Below are positions 7,933 through 55,404 of a stretch of DNA of 64,000 nt, piece after piece (position 1 is the first letter of the stretch; the number at the start of each line of letters is the position of its first letter). A program made the position numbers and the translations under genes. The stretch covers positions 1,488-65,487 of the forward strand of contig JAFDZY010000255.1 in NCBI GenBank assembly GCA_018266685.1, given 5' to 3'. The notes under the pieces are model-generated. The model was not told the DNA's origin and made no database searches. It saw only the letters and a program-made list of their open reading frames with translations. The stretch is from Bacteroidota bacterium (lineage in GTDB: Bacteria; Bacteroidota; Bacteroidia; Flavobacteriales_F; PHOS-HE28).

Positions 7933-8742
7933 CTACTTCCACGCCTTCACGATCAACCCTGTGCCCGTGGGGTGCTTGCCGCGAACATCGAACCCGTTCA
8001 GCACGAAGGCGATCGGATAAGCGATTACGTAATAGAACGGCAGTATGATGAAAAAGAGCTTGCTGGTGTTGAGCATCAGCAGCGGCCACTTCATGCTGAC
8101 CTTCCAGCTGACCTTGCCGGGCGCACCGTAGCTGTACCGTGCTTCCACTTTGCTGAAACCGTTGCGCAGGGCCTTGGCACGGATGTCATCGATGTTGTAG
8201 CCATCGCGCACGTGCTCTTCAATGAAAGAGCCTTCTTCCTCGCCATGCACGTCGCTCCCGCCCTGGTCGCTGGGGGTGCTGATGATGAGCATGCCGCCGG
8301 GCTTGAGCGAGGTGGAATAGCAGCGCAGCGCAGCCTCATCTTCCAGGATGTGCTCCATCACGTCCACGCATACCACCAGCTCAAAGGTTTCCGGGCGCTG
8401 AAACTTCGTCACATCGCCCACTTCAAATTTCACTTGGGGCCTGCCGATCTTTTGGAAGAAGGCGTTGCAATCGGCCACCTGCTCTTCTTTCACATCGATG
8501 GCGGTAATGCTCCACTGGGGCGAGAGGCCGCTGAGCCAGTAGCTGTATTGGCCAAAGCCCGCACCTGCATCATAAACAGCCAGCTCGCGGCCCCGCTTAT
8601 CCCGGCCCCAGACCCGCAATTCCTTGTGGATATGCCATGCGCGCAGCAACAGAAGGTCCAGTAGCCGGTAGAAGAGCTTGCGCAGGGCGGGCGTACTGTT
8701 GAAGACCACGCCGAGGCGGCGTTTCACCGGATCATACTGCAT
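7933..8742 (-). CDS. class I SAM-dependent methyltransferase with C-terminal membrane segment
   Basis: SAM motif I VYDAGAGFGQYS and a post-I acidic residue. Start taken at MQYDPVKRR. Confidence 0.8.
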   Translation of the reverse strand: MQYDPVKRRLGVVFNSTPALRKLFYRLLDLLLLRAWHIHKELRVWGRDKRGRELAVYDAGAGFGQYSYWLSGLSPQWSITAIDVKEEQVADCNAFFQKIGRPQVKFEVGDVTKFQRPETFELVVCVDVMEHILEDEAALRCYSTSLKPGGMLIISTPSDQGGSDVHGEEEGSFIEEHVRDGYNIDDIRAKALRNGFSKVEARYSYGAPGKVSWKVSMKWPLLMLNTSKLFFIILPFYYVIAYPIAFVLNGFDVRGKHPTGTGLIVKAWK

Positions 8743-14622: not shown

Positions 14623-14915
14623 CTACCTGTCTTTACCATTGGCTCTCGGCCAATCGGTATCGTAGACTGTCACGATCTCCATCTCCATACGGCTCACTTT
14701 GTACACTACGGACACATTCGGGTGGATTACTGCGCGGCGACTCCGGGATAGGTGGCCGAGACTTGGTATCCATGGGGGAACTGCTTGACCAAGGTCTCGA
14801 ATTCCTGCAGCAAGCTCAAGAAAGGCTCCACCCACGTCCACTCCTGGATCTTCGAAGAAACGTCTACCCGAAGCTTGGCTTCCCCAGACCAGTAAACGAC
14901 GCGATCACCGGCCAT
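14623..14915 (-). pseudogene. RelE/ParE-family toxin, frameshifted copy
   Basis: Homologous to the intact copy at 16061..16366 but split over two frames (ORFs 14727..15086 and 14623..14841). Alignment of ...ggcgactccgggata with ...ggcgacacccgggata shows a 1-bp loss near 14745-14750. Confidence 0.7.
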
Positions 14916-15129
14916 GCCCCGCCCAAAACTCCTTGCTGCCGATCCGATTTCCTTTGCGCAGGTCTTCGAGGCCCTTTTCCATGGCCCGGCGCTCATCCGA
15001 GGATATATCCCCCGCCCAATCACCATGCTGGGTGGCTTTCTTGATCCCCAGTAACGAATCCAATAGACCATGGTCCTCCATGCCATTGATCCATTCGATC
15101 AACTCCTTCCGGGTGGCTTGGGCGTTCAT
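14905..15129 (-). CDS. addiction-module antitoxin-like protein (partner of the frameshifted toxin)
   Basis: 74 aa, clearly similar by eye to the 16356..16580 product, and overlaps the toxin start. Confidence 0.65.
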   Translation of the reverse strand: MNAQATRKELIEWINGMEDHGLLDSLLGIKKATQHGDWAGDISSDERRAMEKGLEDLRKGNRIGSKEFWAGHGR

Positions 15130-15191
15130 GGCTGCTCTTGTTGAACAAAGTTCGCCGCAGTTATCGGGTCAAACACGAACAAAGAGCCCTG

Positions 15192-15224
15192 CGGTTATCG
15201 CTCGTGTGTCGCGAGTGATAACTG
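15192..15224. repeat. 33-bp palindromic repeat, copy 1
   Basis: cggttatcgctcgtgtgtcgcgagtgataactg. One of four copies, all 33 nt long. Confidence 0.85.
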
Positions 15225-15299
15225 CGCCCGCAAGAACTCCTCCTCGCCCTCCAAGTGTTTTATGCATTCGCCCATCTTCTTTATGCTCGCATCGTACAT
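15195..15299 (-). pseudogene. orphan 3' fragment of an XRE-family gene (34 codons plus stop)
   Basis: Own translation: MYDASIKKMGECIKHLEGEEEFLRAQLSLATHER*. It aligns without gaps, stop to stop, with the C-terminus of the 16936..17319 protein (LYEARIKELEEVVAELRKDKLFLQTQLAAAQKER*) at about 14/34 identities. Confidence 0.45.
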
Positions 15300-15417
15300 C
15301 TTGGCATATATAGCGCTGGATGTGGTATTGCTGCCCCCACTCCCAACACCCGCATGTGATCTGGAAAGAACAGTTTCCTGCCTACGTTGAGCAGGTCAGT
15401 CATTCCCCCCTCCCGGA

Positions 15418-15786
15418 CTACAACAACCTCACCTCGATCACTTCCCTCAACCGCTTGAAGTCATTGTCGGAGATGATCAGCGGCATGTTCAACGTGGCGG
15501 CCGTGGCTGCGACCAACGAATCCGCTAACTTCAACCGGTAGTTGCTGCGCAACCACACACAACGCTCCTTGATCGACGGGCTAATGTCCCAAATGGAGCA
15601 AAAGGCAAGCACCTGGCTGATCACTTCCTGTGCGTTGCGCTTCGTCGCACACATGGTCAAAAGCTCGATCTCCGTTGCGATGGAAATGTGGACTTCACGG
15701 CCCAGCAACCATTCCCTGGCTTCAGGATTTCCTTCCAGAAAGTGGATCAACACGCTCGTATCGGCCACGATGGCGCGATCATTCAT
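15418..15786 (-). CDS. PIN-domain toxin (VapC-like)
   Basis: MNDRAIVADTSVLIHFL... carries the PIN acidic residues and is 122 aa. Confidence 0.85.
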   Translation of the reverse strand: MNDRAIVADTSVLIHFLEGNPEAREWLLGREVHISIATEIELLTMCATKRNAQEVISQVLAFCSIWDISPSIKERCVWLRSNYRLKLADSLVAATAATLNMPLIISDNDFKRLREVIEVRLL

Positions 15787-15982
15787 CGCGCAGCTCCTTC
15801 AACAGGGGGAAGGCCCACTTGCCCATTGCCGGAAGGGCACCCCACAGTTCCTCGGCATGGAACACTTTGCGCATGGGAGCATCAGTCTTTCGCTTCCGTA
15901 CCGTGGCCACGCGCTTTGTAGCACGGCTGCGACGTGCCACCGGCTTCACCGCAGGGATGGCTTTGTTCTTTTTAGTGGCCAT
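15779..15982 (-). CDS. putative cognate antitoxin of the PIN toxin
   Basis: 67-aa basic protein overlapping the vapC-like start by 8 bp. The family was not recognised. Confidence 0.55.
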   Translation of the reverse strand: MATKKNKAIPAVKPVARRSRATKRVATVRKRKTDAPMRKVFHAEELWGALPAMGKWAFPLLKELRDE

Positions 15983-15999
15983 GGCACGAAGTTAAGGCG

Positions 16000-16032
16000 C
16001 AGTTATCGCTCGCGTGTCGCGAGTGATAACTG
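16000..16032. repeat. 33-bp palindromic repeat, copy 2
   Basis: cagttatcgctcgcgtgtcgcgagtgataactg. Confidence 0.85.
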
Positions 16033-16060
16033 CCCGCTCACGCATCGCGAATGAACCACT

Positions 16061-16366
16061 TCATTCTTCGCCAGCCTGGCTCCTTGCGGACCGGTTATCA
16101 TATACGGTCACCACTTCAATCTCCGTTAGGCTGACCTTGTATACCACGGACACATTCGGATGGATCACTGCTCGGCGACACCCGGGATAAATGACCGAAG
16201 CTTGGTATCCATTGGGGAACTGCTTGATCAAGGTCTCGAATTCTTGGAGCAAGTCCAGGAATGCCGATACCTCGCGTTCGCTCCATGACTTCCGAAGAAA
16301 TTCCTTGATCTGGTCAACCCGAAGCTTGGCCTCCCCTGACCAGTAAACGTTACGATCACCGGCCAT
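16061..16366 (-). CDS. RelE/ParE-family toxin (intact copy)
   Basis: MAGDRNVYWSGEAKLRVD...RRAVIHPNVSVVYKVSLTEIEVVTVYDNRS shows the ParE/RelE-like C-terminal pattern. It overlaps the antitoxin stop. Confidence 0.75.
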   Translation of the reverse strand: MAGDRNVYWSGEAKLRVDQIKEFLRKSWSEREVSAFLDLLQEFETLIKQFPNGYQASVIYPGCRRAVIHPNVSVVYKVSLTEIEVVTVYDNRSARSQAGEE

Positions 16367-16580
16367 GGCCTGCCCAAAAGTCCTTGCTGCCGATCCGGTT
16401 TCCTTTGCGCAGGTCTTCAAGGCCCCTTTCTATGGACCGGCGCTCATCCGCGGATATATCCTCCGCCCAATCACCATGCTGGGTAGCTTTCTTAATCCCC
16501 AATAACGAATCCAATAGACCAAGGTCCTCAAGGCCTTTGATCCAATCGATCAACTCGTTCCGGGTGGTTTGGGCATTCAT
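16356..16580 (-). CDS. addiction-module antitoxin-like protein
   Basis: 74 aa, upstream of and overlapping the toxin; paralogue of 14905..15129. Confidence 0.65.
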   Translation of the reverse strand: MNAQTTRNELIDWIKGLEDLGLLDSLLGIKKATQHGDWAEDISADERRSIERGLEDLRKGNRIGSKDFWAGHGR

Positions 16581-16642
16581 GGCAGGTCCTGATGAACAAA
16601 GATAACTGTCGACAGCGGGTCAACCACGAACAAGGAGCCCCG

Positions 16643-16675
16643 CAGTTATCGCTCGCGTGTCGCGAGTGATAACTG
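16643..16675. repeat. 33-bp palindromic repeat, copy 3
   Basis: cagttatcgctcgcgtgtcgcgagtgataactg, identical to copy 2. Confidence 0.85.
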
Positions 16676-16853
16676 CCCTCGTCCATCTCCATTATTCTCC
16701 CGCCGGGTCTTCGCTTCGAGACCCCGCGGTTTGCGGGATCAAAGTCAACGCTCGGTGGAATTTTCGGATCGCAGGATCCCGATGACGGAGACCCTGCGTG
16801 AGGGCAAGCTGCAGGTGGAGTGAGGAGGCCCGTCGGTGCTGTGGGCTATCACG

Positions 16854-16886
16854 CAGCTATCGCTCCCGCGTCGCGAGTGATAACTG
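16854..16886. repeat. 33-bp palindromic repeat, copy 4
   Basis: cagctatcgctcccgcgtcgcgagtgataactg, lying 50 bp downstream of the XRE gene stop. Confidence 0.8.
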
Positions 16887-16935
16887 CCTCCGCAAAAGCT
16901 CCCCCTTCAATCCCTTGATGTGTGCCCGATGAAGT

Positions 16936-17319
16936 TCAACGCTCCTTCTGCGCGGCAGCCAACTGCGTCTGGAGAAAGAGCTTGTCCTTGCGCAGCTCCG
17001 CTACCACTTCCTCCAATTCCTTGATGCGTGCCTCGTACAGCTCATGCGCCTTATCCGACATCCCGTTGTAGGTGCTGTTGTTGTTCACACCCACCAGACC
17101 GTTGCAATGCTGGAAGAACATCTTCTCATCGAAGCTAAGGACTTGGGGAACGGTCATCTCGAAGAGCTTGGCCACCTGTTCCAACAAGGCCAAGGTCCAT
17201 TCCGACTCCCCGCTGATATAACGGCTCAGTTGGCGTTCGCTCATGTCCAACTGCGTGGCCATCCAGTCCTTGCTGAAGCCCTTCAAAAGCATGATCTTCT
17301 CGATGGAGCCTATTTTCAT
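16936..17319 (-). CDS. XRE-family helix-turn-helix transcriptional regulator with C-terminal coiled coil
   Basis: HTH segment KDWMATQLDMSERQLSRYISGES. Start taken at MKIGSIEKIM. It is divergent from the RiPP precursor gene. Confidence 0.8.
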   Translation of the reverse strand: MKIGSIEKIMLLKGFSKDWMATQLDMSERQLSRYISGESEWTLALLEQVAKLFEMTVPQVLSFDEKMFFQHCNGLVGVNNNSTYNGMSDKAHELYEARIKELEEVVAELRKDKLFLQTQLAAAQKER

Positions 17320-17541
17320 GGTCGCCTGATTTTTGACACAATCCGTCCGAAGTTCGCCAGCAATATACTTGCAAGATCCAAACAAACGTTGAAGGTTTGC
17401 ATTGCGCTAAGGCCAACACCCGCCCCACAGGCCCGCTCGTTGTGAAACGGCCGAACAACTGAAGGGGCAGTTGCCGGACCGAGGCGTGAGCGGATGCCGA
17501 AAAGCTCGGAGAGAGTAGGCGGGAAGTTCAACTAAATTGAC

Positions 17542-17781
17542 ATGAAGAAGAGTAAGAGCACTAAAAAGGCAGGCTTGTTCGATAAGCTACAGGATAACAG
17601 GTTCACCAACACGGGATTGGTGCATGGAGGAGCACCGGGGAGCCAAGCAACGAATGATCCCGATTATACCAATCTCGGCGGAGGCACCGATTGCGGGGAT
17701 CAAGACGATGGATCGCTGGTCACGGTTGATACGGTACCGACGAGTGCTGAGTTCGACACACCCACCAGGGGAGGACGTTAG
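17542..17781 (+). CDS. putative RiPP (graspetide-type) precursor peptide with double-glycine leader
   Basis: 79 aa. The leader MKKSKSTKKAGLFDKLQDNRFTNTGLVHGG holds all 6 Lys. The 49-aa core has 8 Thr, 3 Ser, 8 Asp, 1 Glu, 1 Cys and no Lys. It sits directly upstream of the ATP-grasp, SPASM and C39-ABC genes. Confidence 0.7.
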   Translation: MKKSKSTKKAGLFDKLQDNRFTNTGLVHGGAPGSQATNDPDYTNLGGGTDCGDQDDGSLVTVDTVPTSAEFDTPTRGGR

Positions 17782-23320: not shown

Positions 23321-23463
23321 CCACGGATAGACACGGATGCACACGGAAAACTCTATATGGCCGGATGCCTGAGCATGAAATCCATAGCTCAGCCTCAGGG
23401 TCCGCTTCACACCTTCGCGAAGACGCTTCGGCGCACAAAGCGCGAGACCCTGCGGGAGTTCTG

Positions 23464-24738: not shown

Positions 24739-25041
24739 GGGCTGTGCTCAGGAGCGGCATTCCCGGAGGCCGCCAGAGGCGGATGGGCACTGACGCACTC
24801 GCGAAAAACGCGAGCGCGGGCTTCATTGTGGTGATCTGCTCCCTCAAGGTCTCCCGCAGGGGACCTTGTAGGTGGAACTCTGCTGCGTCAAGGTCCGCTT
24901 CAAGCCTTCGCGAAGTGCTACGGCCTGCACAGCGCGAGACCTTGATGGGACTCTGAGGGGACCTTGATGGGACAACTCGGGGGTGTTCTGTATGAGGACG
25001 GACCTTTGATCGGGGTGCGGGGAGCGATGTGACCTGCCGTC

Positions 25042-26265
25042 CTACTCCACCGTCCAATCCCGGAACAGCAGATCCTTTTCGTACGGATACCGCGCCACGT
25101 GGATCGCCTTCACCCGCTCGTACATCAACCGGCGCAGCGCATCGATGTTGTCCTTGCGTGTGGCGGAGATGAAGATGCTCTCATCATCGCCGATGCGCGC
25201 CATCCACGTGTGCTCCAATTCTTCCAGCGTGTACTGGTCCTCGCGCTTGGGGGCCAGGTCGTGCGGGTCGTGCGGCGCGGGTTGGTACGCATCGATCTTG
25301 TTGAACACCACGATCACCGGTTTGCCGCCGGCACCGATCTCCTCCAGGGTTTGGCGCACGGTGTGGTACTGGCTTTCGAACTGCGGATGGCTGATGTCCA
25401 CCACGTGCAGCAGCAGGTCGGCCTCGCGCGTTTCATCGAGGGTGCTCTTGAAGCTTTCGATCAGCTGGTGGGGCAGCTTGCGGATGAAGCCCACCGTATC
25501 GCTGAGCAGGAAGGGCAAGTTGCCCAAGACCACCTTGCGCACCGTGGTGTCCAGCGTGGCGAAGAGCTTGTTCTCGGCGAAGACGTCGCTCTTGCTCAGG
25601 AGGTTCATCAGCGTGCTTTTGCCCACGTTGGTGTAGCCCACCAGCGCCACGCGCACCAGCTTGCCTCGGTTGCCGCGCTGGGTGGCCTTCTGCCGGTCGA
25701 TGTCCTTGAGCTGGGCCTTGAGCAGGCTGATGCGGTCGCGCACCAAACGGCGGTCGGTCTCTATTTCCTTTTCACCCGCTCCGCCGCGTGTTCCGGTGCC
25801 GCCGCGCTGCCGTTCCAGGTGGGTCCACAGCTTGGTGAGGCGCGGCAGCATGTACTCGTACTGTGCCAACTCCACCTGAGTCTTGGCATGGGCTGTTTGC
25901 GCACGGCTGGCGAAGATGTCCAGGATCAGGCGGGGCCTGTCCAGCACGGGCCGCGCCAGTTCCTTCTCAACGTTGCGCTGTTGTGCCGGCGTCAGTTCAT
26001 CATCGAAGATCACGCAGGCGTCAGGCGCATGTTCCTCCATCCAGGCCTTCACTTCGGCTAATTTGCCCGAGCCGATGTGGAACTTGCCATCAGGACGTTG
26101 CAGCTTCTGCATGAAGCGTTTCACCGTGGCGATCTTGGCGGTATCGGCGAGAAAAGCCAGCTCATCCAAGTACTCCTCCACCTGCTCTGCGGATTGGCGT
26201 TCCGTTACAAGGCCGATGAGCACGGCCTTTTCCGCGATTACCTTGTTTTCTTGGGGATCGATCAT
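25042..26265 (-). CDS. hflX: GTPase HflX
   Basis: HflX N-domain, then G1 GYTNVGKST and G3 DTVGF, with the typical length. Confidence 0.93.
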   Translation of the reverse strand: MIDPQENKVIAEKAVLIGLVTERQSAEQVEEYLDELAFLADTAKIATVKRFMQKLQRPDGKFHIGSGKLAEVKAWMEEHAPDACVIFDDELTPAQQRNVEKELARPVLDRPRLILDIFASRAQTAHAKTQVELAQYEYMLPRLTKLWTHLERQRGGTGTRGGAGEKEIETDRRLVRDRISLLKAQLKDIDRQKATQRGNRGKLVRVALVGYTNVGKSTLMNLLSKSDVFAENKLFATLDTTVRKVVLGNLPFLLSDTVGFIRKLPHQLIESFKSTLDETREADLLLHVVDISHPQFESQYHTVRQTLEEIGAGGKPVIVVFNKIDAYQPAPHDPHDLAPKREDQYTLEELEHTWMARIGDDESIFISATRKDNIDALRRLMYERVKAIHVARYPYEKDLLFRDWTVE

Positions 26266-29347: not shown

Positions 29348-30286
29348 ATGAACAAGCAAGACAAGATCTACATCGCAGGCCACCGGGGCATGGTGGGCAG
29401 CGCCATCAAGCGCCGCTTGGAGAAGGAAGGCTACACCAACATCATCGGGCGCACCAGCGGCGAGCTGGACCTGAAGGACCAGGCCGCCGTGCGCGACTTT
29501 TTCCGCAAGGAAAAACCCGACCACGTGGTGCTGGCGGCGGCCAAGGTGGGCGGCATCCAGGCCAACAACACCTACCGCGCGCAGTTCATCTACGAGAACC
29601 TGATGATCCAGAACAACGTGATCCACCAGGCGTACGAAAACGGCGTGAAGCGCCTGCTCTTCCTCGGCTCCTCGTGCATCTACCCCAAGCTGGCCCCGCA
29701 GCCGCTGAAAGAGGAAAGCCTGCTTACCGGCTTGCTGGAGGAAACCAACGAGCCTTACGCCATCGCCAAGATCGCGGGCATCAAGATGGTGGAGAGCTAC
29801 CGCCGCCAGTACGGCTGCGACTACATCAGCGCCATGCCCACCAACCTCTACGGGCCCAACGACAACTACGACCTGAAGAACAGCCACGTGATGCCCGCGC
29901 TGATCCGCAAGTTCCACACGGCAAAGCAGGAAGGGGCGGACACCGTGGAAGTGTGGGGTACCGGCGCGCCCAAGCGTGAGTTCCTCCACGTGGATGACCT
30001 GGCCGATGCCTGCGTGTACCTGCTGAAGAACTACCACGACGAACTCTTCGTCAACATCGGCACCGGCTCCGACCTCACCATTAAGGCGCTGGCGGAAATG
30101 ATCCGCGACATCGTGGGCTTCCAGGGTGAACTGATCTGGGACACCACCAAGCCCGACGGCACCCCGCGCAAGCTCATGGACGTTGGCCGCCTGCACGGCA
30201 TGGGCTGGAAGCACAGCATCGAACTCCGTGACGGCATCAAACAGGTTTACGAGGCGTTCAAGAAGTATGAGGGGGCGAAGGTGTGA
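29348..30286 (+). CDS. fcl: GDP-L-fucose synthase
   Basis: [14 protein letters not shown] Rossmann motif, SSCIYP, YAIAK, and the typical size. Confidence 0.93.
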
Positions 30287-30288
30287 GG
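30188..30288 (+). repeat. direct repeat, left copy (native 3' end of fcl)
   Basis: 101 bp, 88/101 identical by my manual alignment to 30999..31099. Confidence 0.85.
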
Positions 30289-30346
30289 GGATGCGTTGAC
30301 TCCAACGGCTCAATTTCATCACATCAGGGCCTAACTTTGCAAGGCA

Positions 30347-30562
30347 ATGGCCATCTCCATCAAACAAAACAGCAAGCAGGAAACGGTGATCACCATTTCC
30401 GGCAAGGTGGATGCGGAAGCCATTGAACAGGCCATCAAGTACCTGCGCTACTTGGAGCTAACATCCGGATTCAAGCCAGTAAGCCAGCACCAAGTGGATG
30501 AACTTTCCGGCTCCATAAAACGCTCCATGGCCAACAAGCGGCGCAAGCGGTTGGCTTCATGA
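30347..30562 (+). CDS. putative antitoxin of the PIN toxin
   Basis: 71-aa ORF immediately upstream of and overlapping the PIN gene (ATGA). The family was not recognised. Confidence 0.55.
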   Translation: MAISIKQNSKQETVITISGKVDAEAIEQAIKYLRYLELTSGFKPVSQHQVDELSGSIKRSMANKRRKRLAS

Positions 30563-30993
30563 AGCTGGTGGTGGACACCAACATCCTGGTCAGTTGCATG
30601 GTAAAATTCGACGGCCGTACCGCCGAACTTTACCTGAACCCACCTTCAACCCATGTTTATTACGCGCCCGAGGGCTTGATAGCAGAGATCACCCTCCACA
30701 GGGAAAAGATCATGAAGCTTACGGGGGCCACATCGGTCCGGCACGCCGAAATCTCCGAATTATTGCTTTCGCCACTGACCATCATCCCAAACTCCGCTAT
30801 TTCAGCCAAGCATTGGGAACAAGCCTTCAACTTCGTCAAGGACATCGATGATAACGACGACCAGTTCGTTGCGCTCGCGCTTCACCTCAACTGCCCATTA
30901 TGGACAGGAGACAAGAAGCTGGTGAACGGGCTGCGCAGGAAGGGATTCAAGTTGCTGGTCACAAGCGAAGAGCTTCGAAAAGCCGCACGGTGA
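30559..30993 (+). CDS. PIN-domain toxin
   Basis: MKLVVDTNILVSCM... with conserved acidic positions (DIDDNDDQF, TGD). Confidence 0.8.
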   Translation: MKLVVDTNILVSCMVKFDGRTAELYLNPPSTHVYYAPEGLIAEITLHREKIMKLTGATSVRHAEISELLLSPLTIIPNSAISAKHWEQAFNFVKDIDDNDDQFVALALHLNCPLWTGDKKLVNGLRRKGFKLLVTSEELRKAAR

Positions 30994-30998
30994 ACCAT

Positions 30999-31099
30999 CG
31001 CCTGCGCGCCTTGGGCTGGAGGCACAAGATCGAACTGCGCAACGGGATCAAACAGGTTTACGACGCGTTCAAGAAGTACGACGGGGCGAAGGTGTGAGG
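30999..31099 (+). repeat. direct repeat, right copy (orphan fcl 3' end, still in frame to a TGA)
   Basis: Encodes RLRALGWRHKIELRNGIKQVYDAFKKYDGAKV*, against native [32 protein letters not shown]. Confidence 0.85.
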
Positions 31100-48549: not shown

Positions 48550-48987
48550 TCATGGTCGCCCTTCAAGGGCATCTATGTATTTCAATGCAAACTCCCCGGG
48601 GGTCATCACCGGGATCCTGGACTCCTTGAAGCCGGGCACGTCGTTGGTGACGATTACTTGGACCCGGCCGTAGGTGAGCGCAGCCTGGTACTGCACCGCA
48701 TCTTCGAAATCATGCCAATCGGCGCTTATCGCCCCCTCGAGCTGGGGAAGGTCCGTACTGGCCGTGGTGCAAAACGAACAGAGCGTGGCCAGGAACGCAC
48801 GCAGCTTCTGCTTCGGCACGCCCTGCCTGCGAAGGATGTATTCCGTGTTCACCAGGCTCAGGCCCGTGAGCACCAGTTCCATGGGCTGTGATTCCACAGC
48901 CTTGAAGATCCGGGTGCTGTCCACATGGAATGGCCGGTAGGCATCCAAGACATCAAGCAGCACGTTCGTGTCCAGGAACACCCTCAT
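48550..48987 (-). CDS. PIN-domain toxin (VapC-like)
   Basis: MRVFLDTNVLLDVL..., with conserved acidic residues. Confidence 0.85.
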   Translation of the reverse strand: MRVFLDTNVLLDVLDAYRPFHVDSTRIFKAVESQPMELVLTGLSLVNTEYILRRQGVPKQKLRAFLATLCSFCTTASTDLPQLEGAISADWHDFEDAVQYQAALTYGRVQVIVTNDVPGFKESRIPVMTPGEFALKYIDALEGRP

Positions 48988-52947: not shown

Positions 52948-54087
52948 ATGGCCATAGAAAGCATCACCCCCCAACTCGAAAAGCTGGTTCCCGAAGCTGC
53001 GGACTTCCTCCCTTTGCTCGGTACCGACTACATCGAATTCTACGTGGGCAACGCCAAGCAGGCCGCCCACTTCTACAAGACGGCCTTCGGCTTCCAGAGC
53101 TTGGCGTACGCCGGCCTGGAGACGGGCGTGAAGGACCGTACCAGCTACGTGATCGAGCAGGACAAGATCCGCCTGGTGCTCACCACGCCGCTCACGCAGG
53201 ACCACCCGATCAACGACCACCTGCGCAAGCACGGCGACGGCGTGAAGGTGATCGCCCTGTGGGTGGACGACGCCACCAAGGCTTGGGAGGAGACCACCAA
53301 GCGCGGCGCCAAGAGCTACATGAAGCCCACGGTGGAAAAGGACGCCGACGGCGAGGTGGTGAAGAGCGGCATCCACATCTACGGTGACACGGTACACCTC
53401 TTCATTGAGCGCAAGAACTACAAGGGCACCTTCCTGCCGGGCTTCAAGCCGTGGAAGAGCACTTACAACCCCGGCCCCACCGGTCTGAAATACGTGGACC
53501 ACATGGTGGGCAACGTGGGCTGGAACGAGATGAACCCGTGGGTGAAGTTCTATGAGGAGGTGATGGGCTTCGCCAACGTGCTGGGCTTCGACGACAAGGA
53601 CATCAGCACCGAGTACAGCGCCTTGATGAGCAAGGTGATGAGCAACGGCAACGGCCGCATCAAGTTCCCCATCAACGAGCCGGCCGAGGGCAAGAAGAAG
53701 AGCCAGGTGGAGGAATACCTGGACTTCTACAACGGTCCGGGCGTGCAGCACATCGCCGTGGCCACGGACAACATCGTGAAGACCGTGCGCGACCTGATGA
53801 GCCGCGGTGTGGAGTTCCTCAAGGTGCCCAGCACTTACTACGAGGGCCTGCTGGAACGCGTGGGCCCCATCGAGGAAGACCTGGCTCCTTTGGCCGAGCT
53901 GGGCATCCTGGTGGACCGCGACGATGAGGGCTACCTGCTGCAGCTCTTCACCAAGCCGGTGGAGGACCGCCCCACGCTCTTCTTCGAGATCATCCAACGC
54001 AAGGGCGCCAAGAGCTTCGGCAAGGGCAACTTCAAGGCGCTGTTCGAGGCGATCGAACGGGAGCAGGAAAGCCGGGGGACGCTATAG
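52948..54087 (+). CDS. hppD: 4-hydroxyphenylpyruvate dioxygenase
   Basis: Two VOC-fold halves, with the HIA..T, Q.F and [20 protein letters not shown] signature C-terminus. ATG at 52948. Confidence 0.93.
54003..54087 (+). repeat. direct repeat, left copy (native 3' end of hppD)
   Basis: 85 bp, 79/85 identical to 55204..55288 by manual alignment. Confidence 0.9.
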
Positions 54088-54987
54088 GTGCTTAGACTTG
54101 CCGTCTGTGAAATGAGGTTTCCGGTAGACCAGACAGTCCAGCAACTCCTCAACAAGAGGCTCGAGGAGTTGGAGAAGCACTTCGATGCGGATGTGCTTTC
54201 ATACTTCGGACCAATCGCCGATGGGAATGAACAACTCTTCCTTCAGCTACTAGAAGACCTCTCTGCGGATCCCGCCAAGCGGAAGAAGCTCATGGTCGTT
54301 TTGACGACACCCGGTGGTAGTGCGATCGCCGTCGAACGCTATGTCAACATGATCCGGCATCACTATGATGAATTGGATCTTCTTGTTCCCGATTACGCGT
54401 ATAGTGCAGGCACTATCTTCTGTATGAGCGCGGACAACATCCATATGGATTACTACTCGGTGCTCGGACCCATCGACCCCCAAGTCCTGAACAAAGACGG
54501 CAAGTGGGTCGCGGCATTGGGATACTTGGATAAGGTCAATGAGCTGTTGGAGAAGGCTCGTGAGAAGAAGCTTAGCCAAGCTGAATTCCTTATTCTGAAG
54601 GACATTGACTTAGCGGAGTTGCGCGGATATGAGCAGGCCAAGGCCCACACCATCGACCTGCTCAAAAAGTGGTTGGTGAAGCACAAGTTCAAGAACTGGA
54701 CGACGCACAGAACCAATCCGGTACTTATTGGCCAAGCCGTCACCGAGGACCAAAAGCTGGCTCGTGCTGAAGAGATAGCTGCCGCGTTGAGTGACAACAC
54801 CAAGTGGAAGACACACGGCAGGCCGATCAATCTGGAGTCGCTGAAGGAGTTGCGCCTGGAAATCGAGGATTACTCGTCATCCCCATTTGGTCGTCGCGAA
54901 CTCGTAAGGGAGTACTCCTTGCTGATGTTCGACTATATCCGGCGAAACAGCTTCACCAGTTTCATTCACACTAGACACTTCATTTGA
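54088..54987 (+). CDS. Clp-fold serine protease of the SDH / S49-like family
   Basis: LMVVLTTPGGSAIAVERY....VPDYAYSAGTIFCMSADNIHM matches the ClpP/SppA-fold pattern. The track start is a GTG immediately after the hppD stop; an alternative ATG lies at 54112. The block has lower GC. Confidence 0.65.
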   Translation: MLRLAVCEMRFPVDQTVQQLLNKRLEELEKHFDADVLSYFGPIADGNEQLFLQLLEDLSADPAKRKKLMVVLTTPGGSAIAVERYVNMIRHHYDELDLLVPDYAYSAGTIFCMSADNIHMDYYSVLGPIDPQVLNKDGKWVAALGYLDKVNELLEKAREKKLSQAEFLILKDIDLAELRGYEQAKAHTIDLLKKWLVKHKFKNWTTHRTNPVLIGQAVTEDQKLARAEEIAAALSDNTKWKTHGRPINLESLKELRLEIEDYSSSPFGRRELVREYSLLMFDYIRRNSFTSFIHTRHFI

Positions 54988-54989
54988 GC

Positions 54990-55288
<299 letters not shown>

Positions 55289-55404
55289 GGTGGACAACGC
55301 TCGCAATCCTGTTCTGCTTGCAAGTGTGGCAAGACACGTGCTTGGTAACGGTTGAGTAGCCGTTGCCCAATCCGCCTGTTCGAATGTCCATTGGTGCCTG
55401 GCCA

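Follow-up and report, generated by a model that had tools for sequence, protein, structure and literature searches.

The locus examined here raises the question of how a series of near-identical hairpins came to lie between small toxin-antitoxin (TA) genes behind a regulator gene. The window, by which we mean the whole 64-kb stretch of contig JAFDZY010000255.1 (Bacteroidota bacterium, assembly GCA_018266685.1) that was analysed, carries on its minus strand an XRE-family regulator gene followed in order by palindrome copy 4, 177 bp, copy 3, a ParE pair (cassette B), copy 2, a VapBC-like pair, an XRE remnant with copy 1, and a further ParE pair (cassette A). This order and content are as described in an earlier note on the same DNA, which had proposed that the four copies of a 33-bp palindrome are relic 3' ends of the XRE gene and that cassettes were added serially at that end, duplicating it each time. 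Our analysis supports the view that the palindrome is probably the end of an earlier XRE allele, and thereby a relic and not a new kind of element.

A search of the window that allowed up to 3 mismatches recovered exactly the four sites of the 33-mer that had been reported, while shuffled sequences gave and are expected to give 0. All four copies are packed into 1.7 kb and the palindrome is absent from the rest of the window. The wider sequence that was scanned, consisting of the window and related loci (numbered here with the prefix L), amounts to 402 kb, and within it the palindrome is confined to the junctions of TA cassettes. The true length of the repeat is 35 bp (GCAGTTATCGCTCGCG-TGT-CGCGAGTGATAACTGC), folding into a 16-bp stem with one mismatch and a 3-nt loop, with a calculated stability as DNA of -16 to -19 kcal/mol (z about -5 to -6). 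Across 35-38 nt, copies 2 and 3 agree at every position (100% identity), their flanks being unrelated, and every substitution in copies 1 and 4 is located in the plus-strand left arm or the loop. Judged by the TGT centre and the G/A asymmetry, all four copies stand in direct orientation. The 8-mer CAGTTATC occurs 9 times in the window, with 8 of the 9 occurrences inside the array; two of these eight are extra single half-sites, at 15158 and 16601, which lie in antitoxin promoter regions. A 15-nt segment that includes the GATAACTG half-site has opposite orientations in the promoters of cassettes A and B (15143-15200 versus 16594-16651), and cassette A additionally carries a 34-bp tandem duplication of GAACAAAG-N6-GCAGTTATCG. 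An intrinsic terminator was considered and rejected, as the hairpin is stable but has no T tract and a terminator scan makes no call. A CRISPR-like array was set aside as well, the 'spacers' being 177-775 bp long and gene-bearing. Rfam gave no structured RNA match in the array, and blastn of the array against PLSDB, which would have indicated a plasmid origin, returned no match.

Read on the minus strand, every copy encodes QLSLAT(R/H)ER followed by a stop codon, as had been noticed before, and the sequence adjoining the copies identifies these repeats as gene ends. The fragment that ends in copy 1 aligns with the C-terminus of the intact XRE protein stop to stop and without gaps, with 13/34 identities and a BLOSUM62 score of 64 that was reached by 0 of 100,000 shuffles, so that the match claimed in the earlier note withstood the alignment test named there. 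The 25 codons upstream of the palindrome are significant alone, with the palindrome-encoded residues excluded, and tblastn stretches the remnant to XRE residues about 65-127 (window 15380-15198). Displaced end 1 is orthologous to a remnant in L010 and to positions 2-637 of L041; a protein search with this remnant yielded no intact donor allele. Copy 4 differs from copies 2 and 3 by 3 substitutions, all of them silent (ACA to ACG, CGC to CGG and TAA to TAG), as expected if copy 4 once was the working end of the gene. The fragment reported to extend copy 4 (HIKGLKGELLRRQLSLATRER*) is present, but it resembles the copy 1 type of XRE tail only with a 2-codon gap, and the resemblance is weak (ungapped p about 0.03).

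Relatives provided further remnants of the same kind. The XRE family concerned is a small group from uncultured Flavobacteriales with variable C-terminal tails, and remnant tails among these relatives show codon-by-codon homology with the palindrome, namely QLALAARGR* (L039a), QLALSTRER* (L050), QLAPVTREG (L010), QLVSATHGR (L039c) and RLAIATRID (L041). Palindromic pairing falls along this series, from 15/16 positions in copies 2 and 3 through 9-11/16 in relics beside TA cassettes to 3/16 in the tail of the resident XRE gene, QLAAAQKER*, which belongs to the same series yet hardly pairs. The secure remnant at copy 1, the homologous tails of the relatives and the silent changes in copy 4 together bear out the relic interpretation. 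The further claim that each cassette duplicated the resident end did not hold, as this end is non-palindromic and lineage-specific and the copies differ mainly at synonymous sites. The predominance of synonymous differences at all such loci instead points to the import of a foreign gene end with each cassette.

Comparison with related loci revealed that cassette content differs among relatives at these junctions. The XRE protein of L010 is 91% identical across the alignable 111 residues, and the gene is followed there by 96 nt, the orthologue of remnant 1, a degenerate palindrome, an antitoxin gene and a ParE remnant. Relative to L010, the window has about 1.6 kb extra between XRE and remnant 1. 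Homology between the two XRE genes breaks at 17003, 22 codons before the stop, and the last 22 codons in the window (16936-17003), from codon 106 onward, are lineage-specific. Serial addition of cassettes is in agreement with L010, which has the distal unit alone behind XRE, and with analogous arrays at other genes. L041 matches only 16681-16005 of the window, that is, from palindrome 3 to palindrome 2, at 84% identity, and has an XRE remnant to the left of this match, unrelated DNA to the right, and a degenerate palindrome at the position equivalent to copy 2. The two L041 palindromes are decaying (4/16 and 10/16 positions paired), while the TA genes between them are intact. L039 has three XRE remnants, among which lie a ParE cassette and a gene for an AAA_14/DUF4143 ATPase; an intact XRE gene is not present nearby. 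In L050 a palindrome copy lies within a TA operon, where it creates an in-frame fusion to the antitoxin (...WAGHGR-QLTLATRER*), and this 32-nt copy takes the place of 22 nt between CCGG microhomologies. The arrangement of an XRE remnant followed by an antitoxin gene is kept in L010, L039 and L041. In an exact-protein look-up of XRE and PIN, Logan contigs break inside the palindrome.

Two observations concern sequence behind other XRE homologues. In L016 (695-1618), a homologue that is 66% identical is followed by two tandem arrays, one with a 43-bp unit (12.8 copies) and one with a 64-bp unit (6 copies), and the units contain the small palindrome CACAGTTAACCAACTGTG. The L018 contig ends about 80 nt past the XRE stop in a 32-nt internal fragment of HflX (8240-8255; VFNKIDAYRP). 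The presence of an HflX fragment so near to an XRE stop hints at possible movement of cassettes or fragments between the two sites, HflX and XRE, on either side of the peptide cluster described below.

The same footprint is present at other genes. The window was scanned for direct repeats 30-400 nt in length whose copies stand 250-3000 nt from each other, which gave 7 pairs: 4 in the XRE array and 1 each at an epimerase gene, at an HPPD gene and at the 5' end of a HlyD-like gene, so that 6 of the 7 fall at three cassette loci. The epimerase repeats flank an antitoxin gene (30347-30562) and a PIN_2 toxin gene (30559-30993), the repeat ending 2 nt past the stop codon, and the HPPD repeats flank a low-GC cassette composed of a ClpP-like SDH-type serine protease gene and a 71-aa open reading frame (ORF). 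HflX, which has an empty insertion site behind it in the window, is 92% identical to its counterpart in L031, where two cassettes follow in the order HflX, ParE cassette, HflX 3' repeat, reversed HicAB-like pair, HflX 3' repeat. The two repeats are 140 and 88 nt long and no palindrome is found there; comparison with the window allele does not decide which HflX copy in L031 is foreign and which is resident, all pairs showing 6-15 differences per 85 nt. In L042 and related contigs a ParE cassette has repeats of a hydrolase gene's 5' end on either side, and at the distant locus L025 a 119-nt repeat of an XRE 3' end surrounds an HNH cassette. The common plan is a compact accessory cassette that tightly fills the interval between two direct repeats, each of them a copy of the upstream gene's last 35-190 nt, and one ParE cassette family is found behind at least three different genes. 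The footprints at the epimerase, HPPD, HflX and hydrolase genes have neither the palindrome nor any shared motif.

Several neighbouring features were recorded in the course of this comparison. The HlyD-like repeat is a 61-nt piece of the 5' end at 80% identity (23392-23452 and 24885-24944), and its second copy sits between the HlyD-like gene and HflX, where L031 has its cassettes. These two genes are convergent, and the space between them also holds a conserved hairpin, CGCTCGCG-TTTTT-CGCGAGTG (24798-24814 in the window and 6420-6436 in L031), whose stem core is identical with the inner stem of the XRE palindrome. In L023 (6324-8257), from a distant Bacteroidota metagenome-assembled genome (MAG), a 106-nt repeat spanning an XRE 3' end flanks a DUF1016 gene, directly beyond which is a gene for an IS200-like Y1 transposase (RAYT-like, Y1_Tnp). 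A third PIN-domain gene of the window (PIN_3; 48550-48987, minus strand) abuts an epimerase-family gene, and no flanking direct repeat was detected around it.

The divergence between repeat copies is constrained by coding. Pooling 8 repeat pairs gave 40.5 synonymous and 26.5 non-synonymous differences, corresponding to proportions of 0.289 (pS) and 0.054 (pN) and a ratio of 0.19. These pairs show no frameshifts, and every displaced 3'-end copy among them has kept a stop codon. Individual pairs show the same tendency, with 4/4 coding differences synonymous at HPPD and 5/6 synonymous between HflX copies 2 and 3. Since the differences are mostly synonymous, the copies appear to have diverged as working gene ends. 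Target duplication or in-situ duplication would leave one neutral copy, and an origin from two alleles, in which once-functional gene ends diverged in separate lineages, would therefore fit these sequences better than duplicates decaying in situ. Target-site duplication by a transposase was rejected separately, on repeat lengths of 35-190 nt and on copies that differ mostly at synonymous sites. On their 3' side the 3'-end repeats all stop 2-4 nt beyond the stop codon. On their 5' side they reach back to varying extents, with repeat lengths at XRE of 35, 35, about 70 and about 190 nt and at HflX of 88 and 140 nt, and such ragged edges argue against a single fixed crossover core. None of the 46 ORFs covering the window was found to have a recombinase or transposase domain, and the gene tables of L010 and L039 list no recombinase.

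The features of the array and of the other cassette loci are collected in the table. Cassettes A and B share 81% nucleotide identity, and no palindrome lies between the frameshifted ParE of cassette A and the PBP1A gene. The antitoxin family of cassette B comprises 45 clusters, and all 6 of the 6 with a source name are from Flavobacteriales MAGs. Neither antitoxin had a DNA-binding match in Pfam or NCBIfam. The 177-bp unit gave nothing by blastn against all loci and no match in Rfam, and may be an empty or decayed cassette.

Table. Coordinates of the XRE gene, its displaced ends, the palindrome copies and the cassettes, together with the other loci of the window that have the footprint or an empty site
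Feature	Position	Strand	Evidence or remark
Intact XRE-family regulator, 127 aa	16936..17319	-	Pfam HTH_26/HTH_3
Displaced XRE end 4: about 12 remnant codons (HIKGLKGELLRR) and copy 4 (QLSLATRER, TAG stop)	16852..16923	-	
177-bp unit between copies 4 and 3, no convincing ORF	16677..16853	-	six-frame translation
Palindrome copy 3, without upstream XRE remnant	16641..16677	-	left edge of L041 homology
Cassette B: 74-aa antitoxin (16356-16580) and ParE-like toxin (16061-16366)	16061..16580	-	weak Pfam ParE_toxin match
Palindrome copy 2	15998..16034	-	27 nt past ParE stop, 17 nt before vapB-like start codon
VapBC-like cassette: 67-aa antitoxin (15779-15982) and PIN toxin (15418-15786)	15418..15982	-	Pfam PIN 9e-18; NCBIfam VapC
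Displaced XRE end 1: XRE residues about 65-127, ending in copy 1 (QLSLATHER*)	15190..15380	-	
Cassette A: GATAACTG half-site (15158-15165), antitoxin (14905-15129) and frameshifted ParE pseudogene	14623..15165	-	
33-mer of palindrome copy 1	15192-15224		2 mismatches
33-mer of palindrome copy 2	16000-16032		exact
33-mer of palindrome copy 3	16643-16675		exact
33-mer of palindrome copy 4	16854-16886		3 mismatches
Empty insertion site behind HflX (gene 25042-26265, minus strand)	24739..25041	.	
Epimerase gene: last 101 nt (30188-30288), repeated at 30999-31099	30188..31099	+	87% identity
HPPD gene: last 89 nt (54003-54090), repeated at 55204-55292	54003..55292	+	94% identity

The XRE gene is divergent from a peptide-export cluster, and its homologues always adjoin a C39-ABC export cluster. 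Just upstream of the 79-aa ORF that heads this cluster (17542-17781), Rfam identified a DUF805b RNA motif (17487-17521, plus strand; 37.6 bits, above the gathering score). Between 17800 and 20800, beside the C39-ABC exporter, are three genes without Pfam matches (297, 332 and 363 aa) with a GC content of 46-50% against about 60% in the flanks. This low GC suggests that the region is a horizontally acquired peptide-modification or bacteriocin-like cluster.

How might such an array have formed? We give about an even chance to homology-anchored insertion of foreign DNA that brings its own gene end and displaces the resident one. The palindrome would then represent the last 31 nt of an earlier XRE allele together with the 4 nt that follow (the nine QLSLATRER codons, the stop and CTGC), and the four copies would be junction scars of an array that grew outward from XRE. 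In each event, a foreign XRE 3' end and one compact cassette would be imported, anchored on the left by homologous recombination inside XRE and joined on the right within the last 35-190 nt of the resident gene. The right join could be made by homology-facilitated illegitimate recombination or by Campbell-type integration of a circular cassette. The incoming end would preserve a working gene while the resident end would be pushed downstream as a remnant, and repetition of this process behind XRE would produce a polar array. We infer the order of events, from oldest to newest, as remnant 1 with cassette A, the VapBC-like pair, cassette B, the 177-bp unit, and a replacement of the XRE tail, with the break at 17003 and the differing XRE tails of the window and L010 presumably marking the latest such exchange. 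The hairpin presumably had no special role other than to supply 35 bp of identical sequence and perhaps a structure that is fragile or causes pausing. A broader proposal, which we advance only tentatively, is that in Flavobacteriales TA and accessory cassettes without a recombinase of their own enter by way of foreign gene ends and build integron-like arrays, or else that an undescribed hairpin-recognising enzyme acts at the XRE palindrome.

Several points weigh against homology-anchored insertion. The repeat around cassette B is the palindrome exactly on both sides, and its two copies are 100% identical though cassettes A and B are only 81% identical to each other. Such exact and identical bounds resemble the core of a site-specific recombinase, and 35 bp is short for a RecA-dependent exchange. 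The L050 palindrome inside a TA operon can be accommodated only as an ectopic microhomology event, and the model leaves the first arrival of a cassette beside a given gene unexplained. Lastly, the comparison of cassette presence and absence that the earlier note had called for shows differences among relatives at the junctions, but single-cassette polymorphism between strains was not found, and all contigs with the exact XRE or PIN protein show the arrangement of the window.

The main rival to this mechanism, which we regard as unlikely, is that a recombinase encoded elsewhere uses the palindrome as its core site, in a cassette system comparable to lox/FRT, dif or integrons. Circles with one palindrome each would recombine with the palindrome at the XRE end, so that a site would remain on either side of the cassette. 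The architecture of the site is suited to such a role, with inverted arms of 13-16 bp around an asymmetric centre of 3-7 bp and four copies in direct orientation. The cassettes are compact, copies 2 and 3 are identical and sharply bounded by unrelated flanks, the limits of homology between the window and L041 coincide with palindromes, a GATAG/GATAAC motif lies 2-3 nt past the palindrome at three independent junctions, and extra half-sites are found nearby. However, the footprints at the epimerase, HPPD, HflX and hydrolase genes lack the palindrome or any motif in common, the repeats have uneven 5' edges, neither the window nor the related array loci contain a recombinase gene, and the L041 palindromes are decaying beside intact TA genes. 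It is less probable again that the palindrome serves as an operator, an alternative that had been raised in the earlier note and is weakly disfavoured by our results. In the window, L010, L039, L041 and L050, the promoter region of the antitoxin does have a palindrome or its relic immediately before it, with 26-27 or 62 nt from the palindrome end to the ATG and a half-site that overlaps a TAnnTTTG-type -7 box. The antitoxins have no Pfam or NCBIfam DNA-binding match of their own, and ParE systems of three components, one of them a separate regulator, have been described (PMC8630535). The palindrome is nevertheless missing from the homologous ParE cassettes of L031 (at HflX) and L042 (at the hydrolase site), and the upstream palindrome of L041 is about 69% conserved as compared with 84% for the whole cassette. 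Moreover, copy 4 precedes no gene and copy 2 leaves just 17 nt to a start codon. The XRE promoter region has no GTTATC motif, on which ground autoregulation of XRE through this motif was also rejected.

The remaining two alternatives appear more improbable still. Under one of them, the palindrome would be a mobile hairpin of the repetitive extragenic palindromic (REP) type, spread by an HUH (RAYT/IS200-like) transposase, and its likeness to an XRE tail would be secondary. The 32-nt copy that replaces 22 nt between CCGG microhomologies in the L050 operon, the stability of the hairpin, and the Y1_Tnp gene adjoining a repeat-flanked cassette in the distant L023 are all compatible with a mobile hairpin. 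Yet there are just four copies in 64 kb, all inside 1.7 kb, no REP-like dispersal was seen within the 402 kb of window and related sequence, where copies are restricted to TA cassette junctions, the window has no Y1 transposase, and the non-palindromic XRE tails of relatives are homologous to the palindrome codon by codon. A degenerate palindrome pattern also gave 0 matches in three public collections (genome_contigs, metagenome_contigs and viral_contigs), although the organism is evidently outside these collections and this result has little bearing on REP status. A plain REP, as had been entertained earlier, is unsupported in the sequence searched. Least probable in our estimation is tandem duplication in situ of an ancestral XRE-antitoxin-ParE module followed by deletions, with no foreign DNA involved. 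Such a history would account for two paralogous ParE cassettes at 81% identity, each behind a palindrome and a homologous spacer, and for the conserved layout of XRE remnant and antitoxin in L010, L039 and L041. However, the palindromes between which an unrelated VapBC cassette and the 177-bp unit lie are identical, cassette B shares more identity with L041 (84%) than with cassette A (81%), a synonymous bias is not expected for one decaying duplicate, and unrelated cassettes at three other genes show the same footprint.

Arrays of displaced gene ends are known from several systems, with which the present one can be compared. Orphan rhs-CT and cdiA-CT modules with their immunity genes form arrays behind the main gene, where displaced 3' fragments are still homologous to that gene and can support recombination with it (PMC3967940). 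The likeness is in small modules placed behind a full-length gene, each preceded by a 5'-truncated fragment; such fragments precede modules at displaced ends 1 and 4 of the window, at remnants a-c of L039 and at HflX copies 2 and 3 of L031. In contrast to rhs/cdi arrays, the repeated gene here is a regulator or housekeeping gene and not a toxin gene, the modules are self-contained TA or accessory cassettes with which the fragments (tails of a regulator, a GTPase and an enzyme) have no functional relation, and the fragments are short (35-190 nt). Islands at tRNA and tmRNA genes are integrase-borne, supply a surrogate gene end, are flanked by direct repeats, and are ordered with the newest element next to the gene. 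Tandem accretion of islands at gene 3' ends is also known, for example for SGI1 at trmE (PMC8409611). Our arrays share with integrase islands the insertion at a 3' end, the surrogate end, the flanking gene-end repeats and the gene-proximal position of the newest unit, and the repeat copies keep frame and stop with a pN/pS of 0.19, as a surrogate end would. Unlike those islands, the cassettes are only 0.2-1.2 kb long, there is no integrase and no fixed crossover core, and one ParE cassette family stands behind at least three different genes.

Integrons are similar in their compact, co-oriented cassettes, many of them TA pairs, split by imperfect palindromes. The arms of the present site read GTTATC...GATAAC on both strands, the reverse order of RYYYAAC...GTTRRRY in attC, and the site measures 35 bp as against about 57-141 bp, so that an attC site is ruled out by arm polarity and length. 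The site also differs from attC in having no L''/L' boxes, extrahelical bases or unpaired central spacer, and in lying within coding sequence. Neither intI nor attI, which a CALIN does not require, was found, and there was no match to Phage_integrase or another recombinase among the 46 ORFs of the window. Sites of the pdif type alternate in orientation and are plasmid-borne, and the 35-bp site shows no likeness to the dif consensus, although it was not formally aligned to a dif model. The dif modules of Acinetobacter are often TA pairs, are bounded by XerC/XerD pdif sites of 28 bp with two 11-bp arms around a 6-bp centre, and have no recombinase of their own (PMC6449649). Small modules, short bounds that contain a palindrome and the lack of a dedicated recombinase are features in common; here, however, the sites are chromosomal, measure 35 bp, share one direct orientation and stem from the end of a gene.

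Homology-facilitated illegitimate recombination during natural transformation was reportedly described by de Vries and Wackernagel in 2002 and, in the same year, by Prudhomme et al., and is known mainly from laboratory selection. With a homologous anchor on one side only and an illegitimate join on the other, it would explain foreign DNA beside a conserved gene, ragged junctions, and the dispensability of a recombinase; we know of no natural arrays of displaced gene ends that have been attributed to it. In paaR-paaA-parE systems an intact, co-oriented regulator gene stands directly before the antitoxin and toxin genes. Here only truncated XRE remnants directly precede ParE pairs, and the intact XRE gene always accompanies the divergent peptide cluster, both where there is a TA pair and where there is none.

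The route by which TA modules integrate into chromosomes has been described as unresolved (PMC7167474), which makes this footprint worth following up. It constitutes a testable clue to cassette entry into chromosomes, through donor and recipient alleles, dependence on RecA or competence, and circular intermediates. In genomes and MAGs, a displaced gene end with a low pN/pS also offers an easily computed marker by which recently acquired cassettes can be found, and the XRE locus illustrates that palindromes in a striking array need not be a dedicated site and can arise as a by-product of the sequence in which a gene ends. A search of the literature on this footprint around TA cassettes found nothing directly relevant. 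Displaced gene ends are already known from integrase islands and rhs/cdi loci (PMC3967940), and cassette arrays from integrons and dif modules (PMC6449649). What differs here is their combination, in which compact cassettes without a recombinase, mostly TA pairs, stand behind ordinary genes and bear the repeat signature of two alleles.

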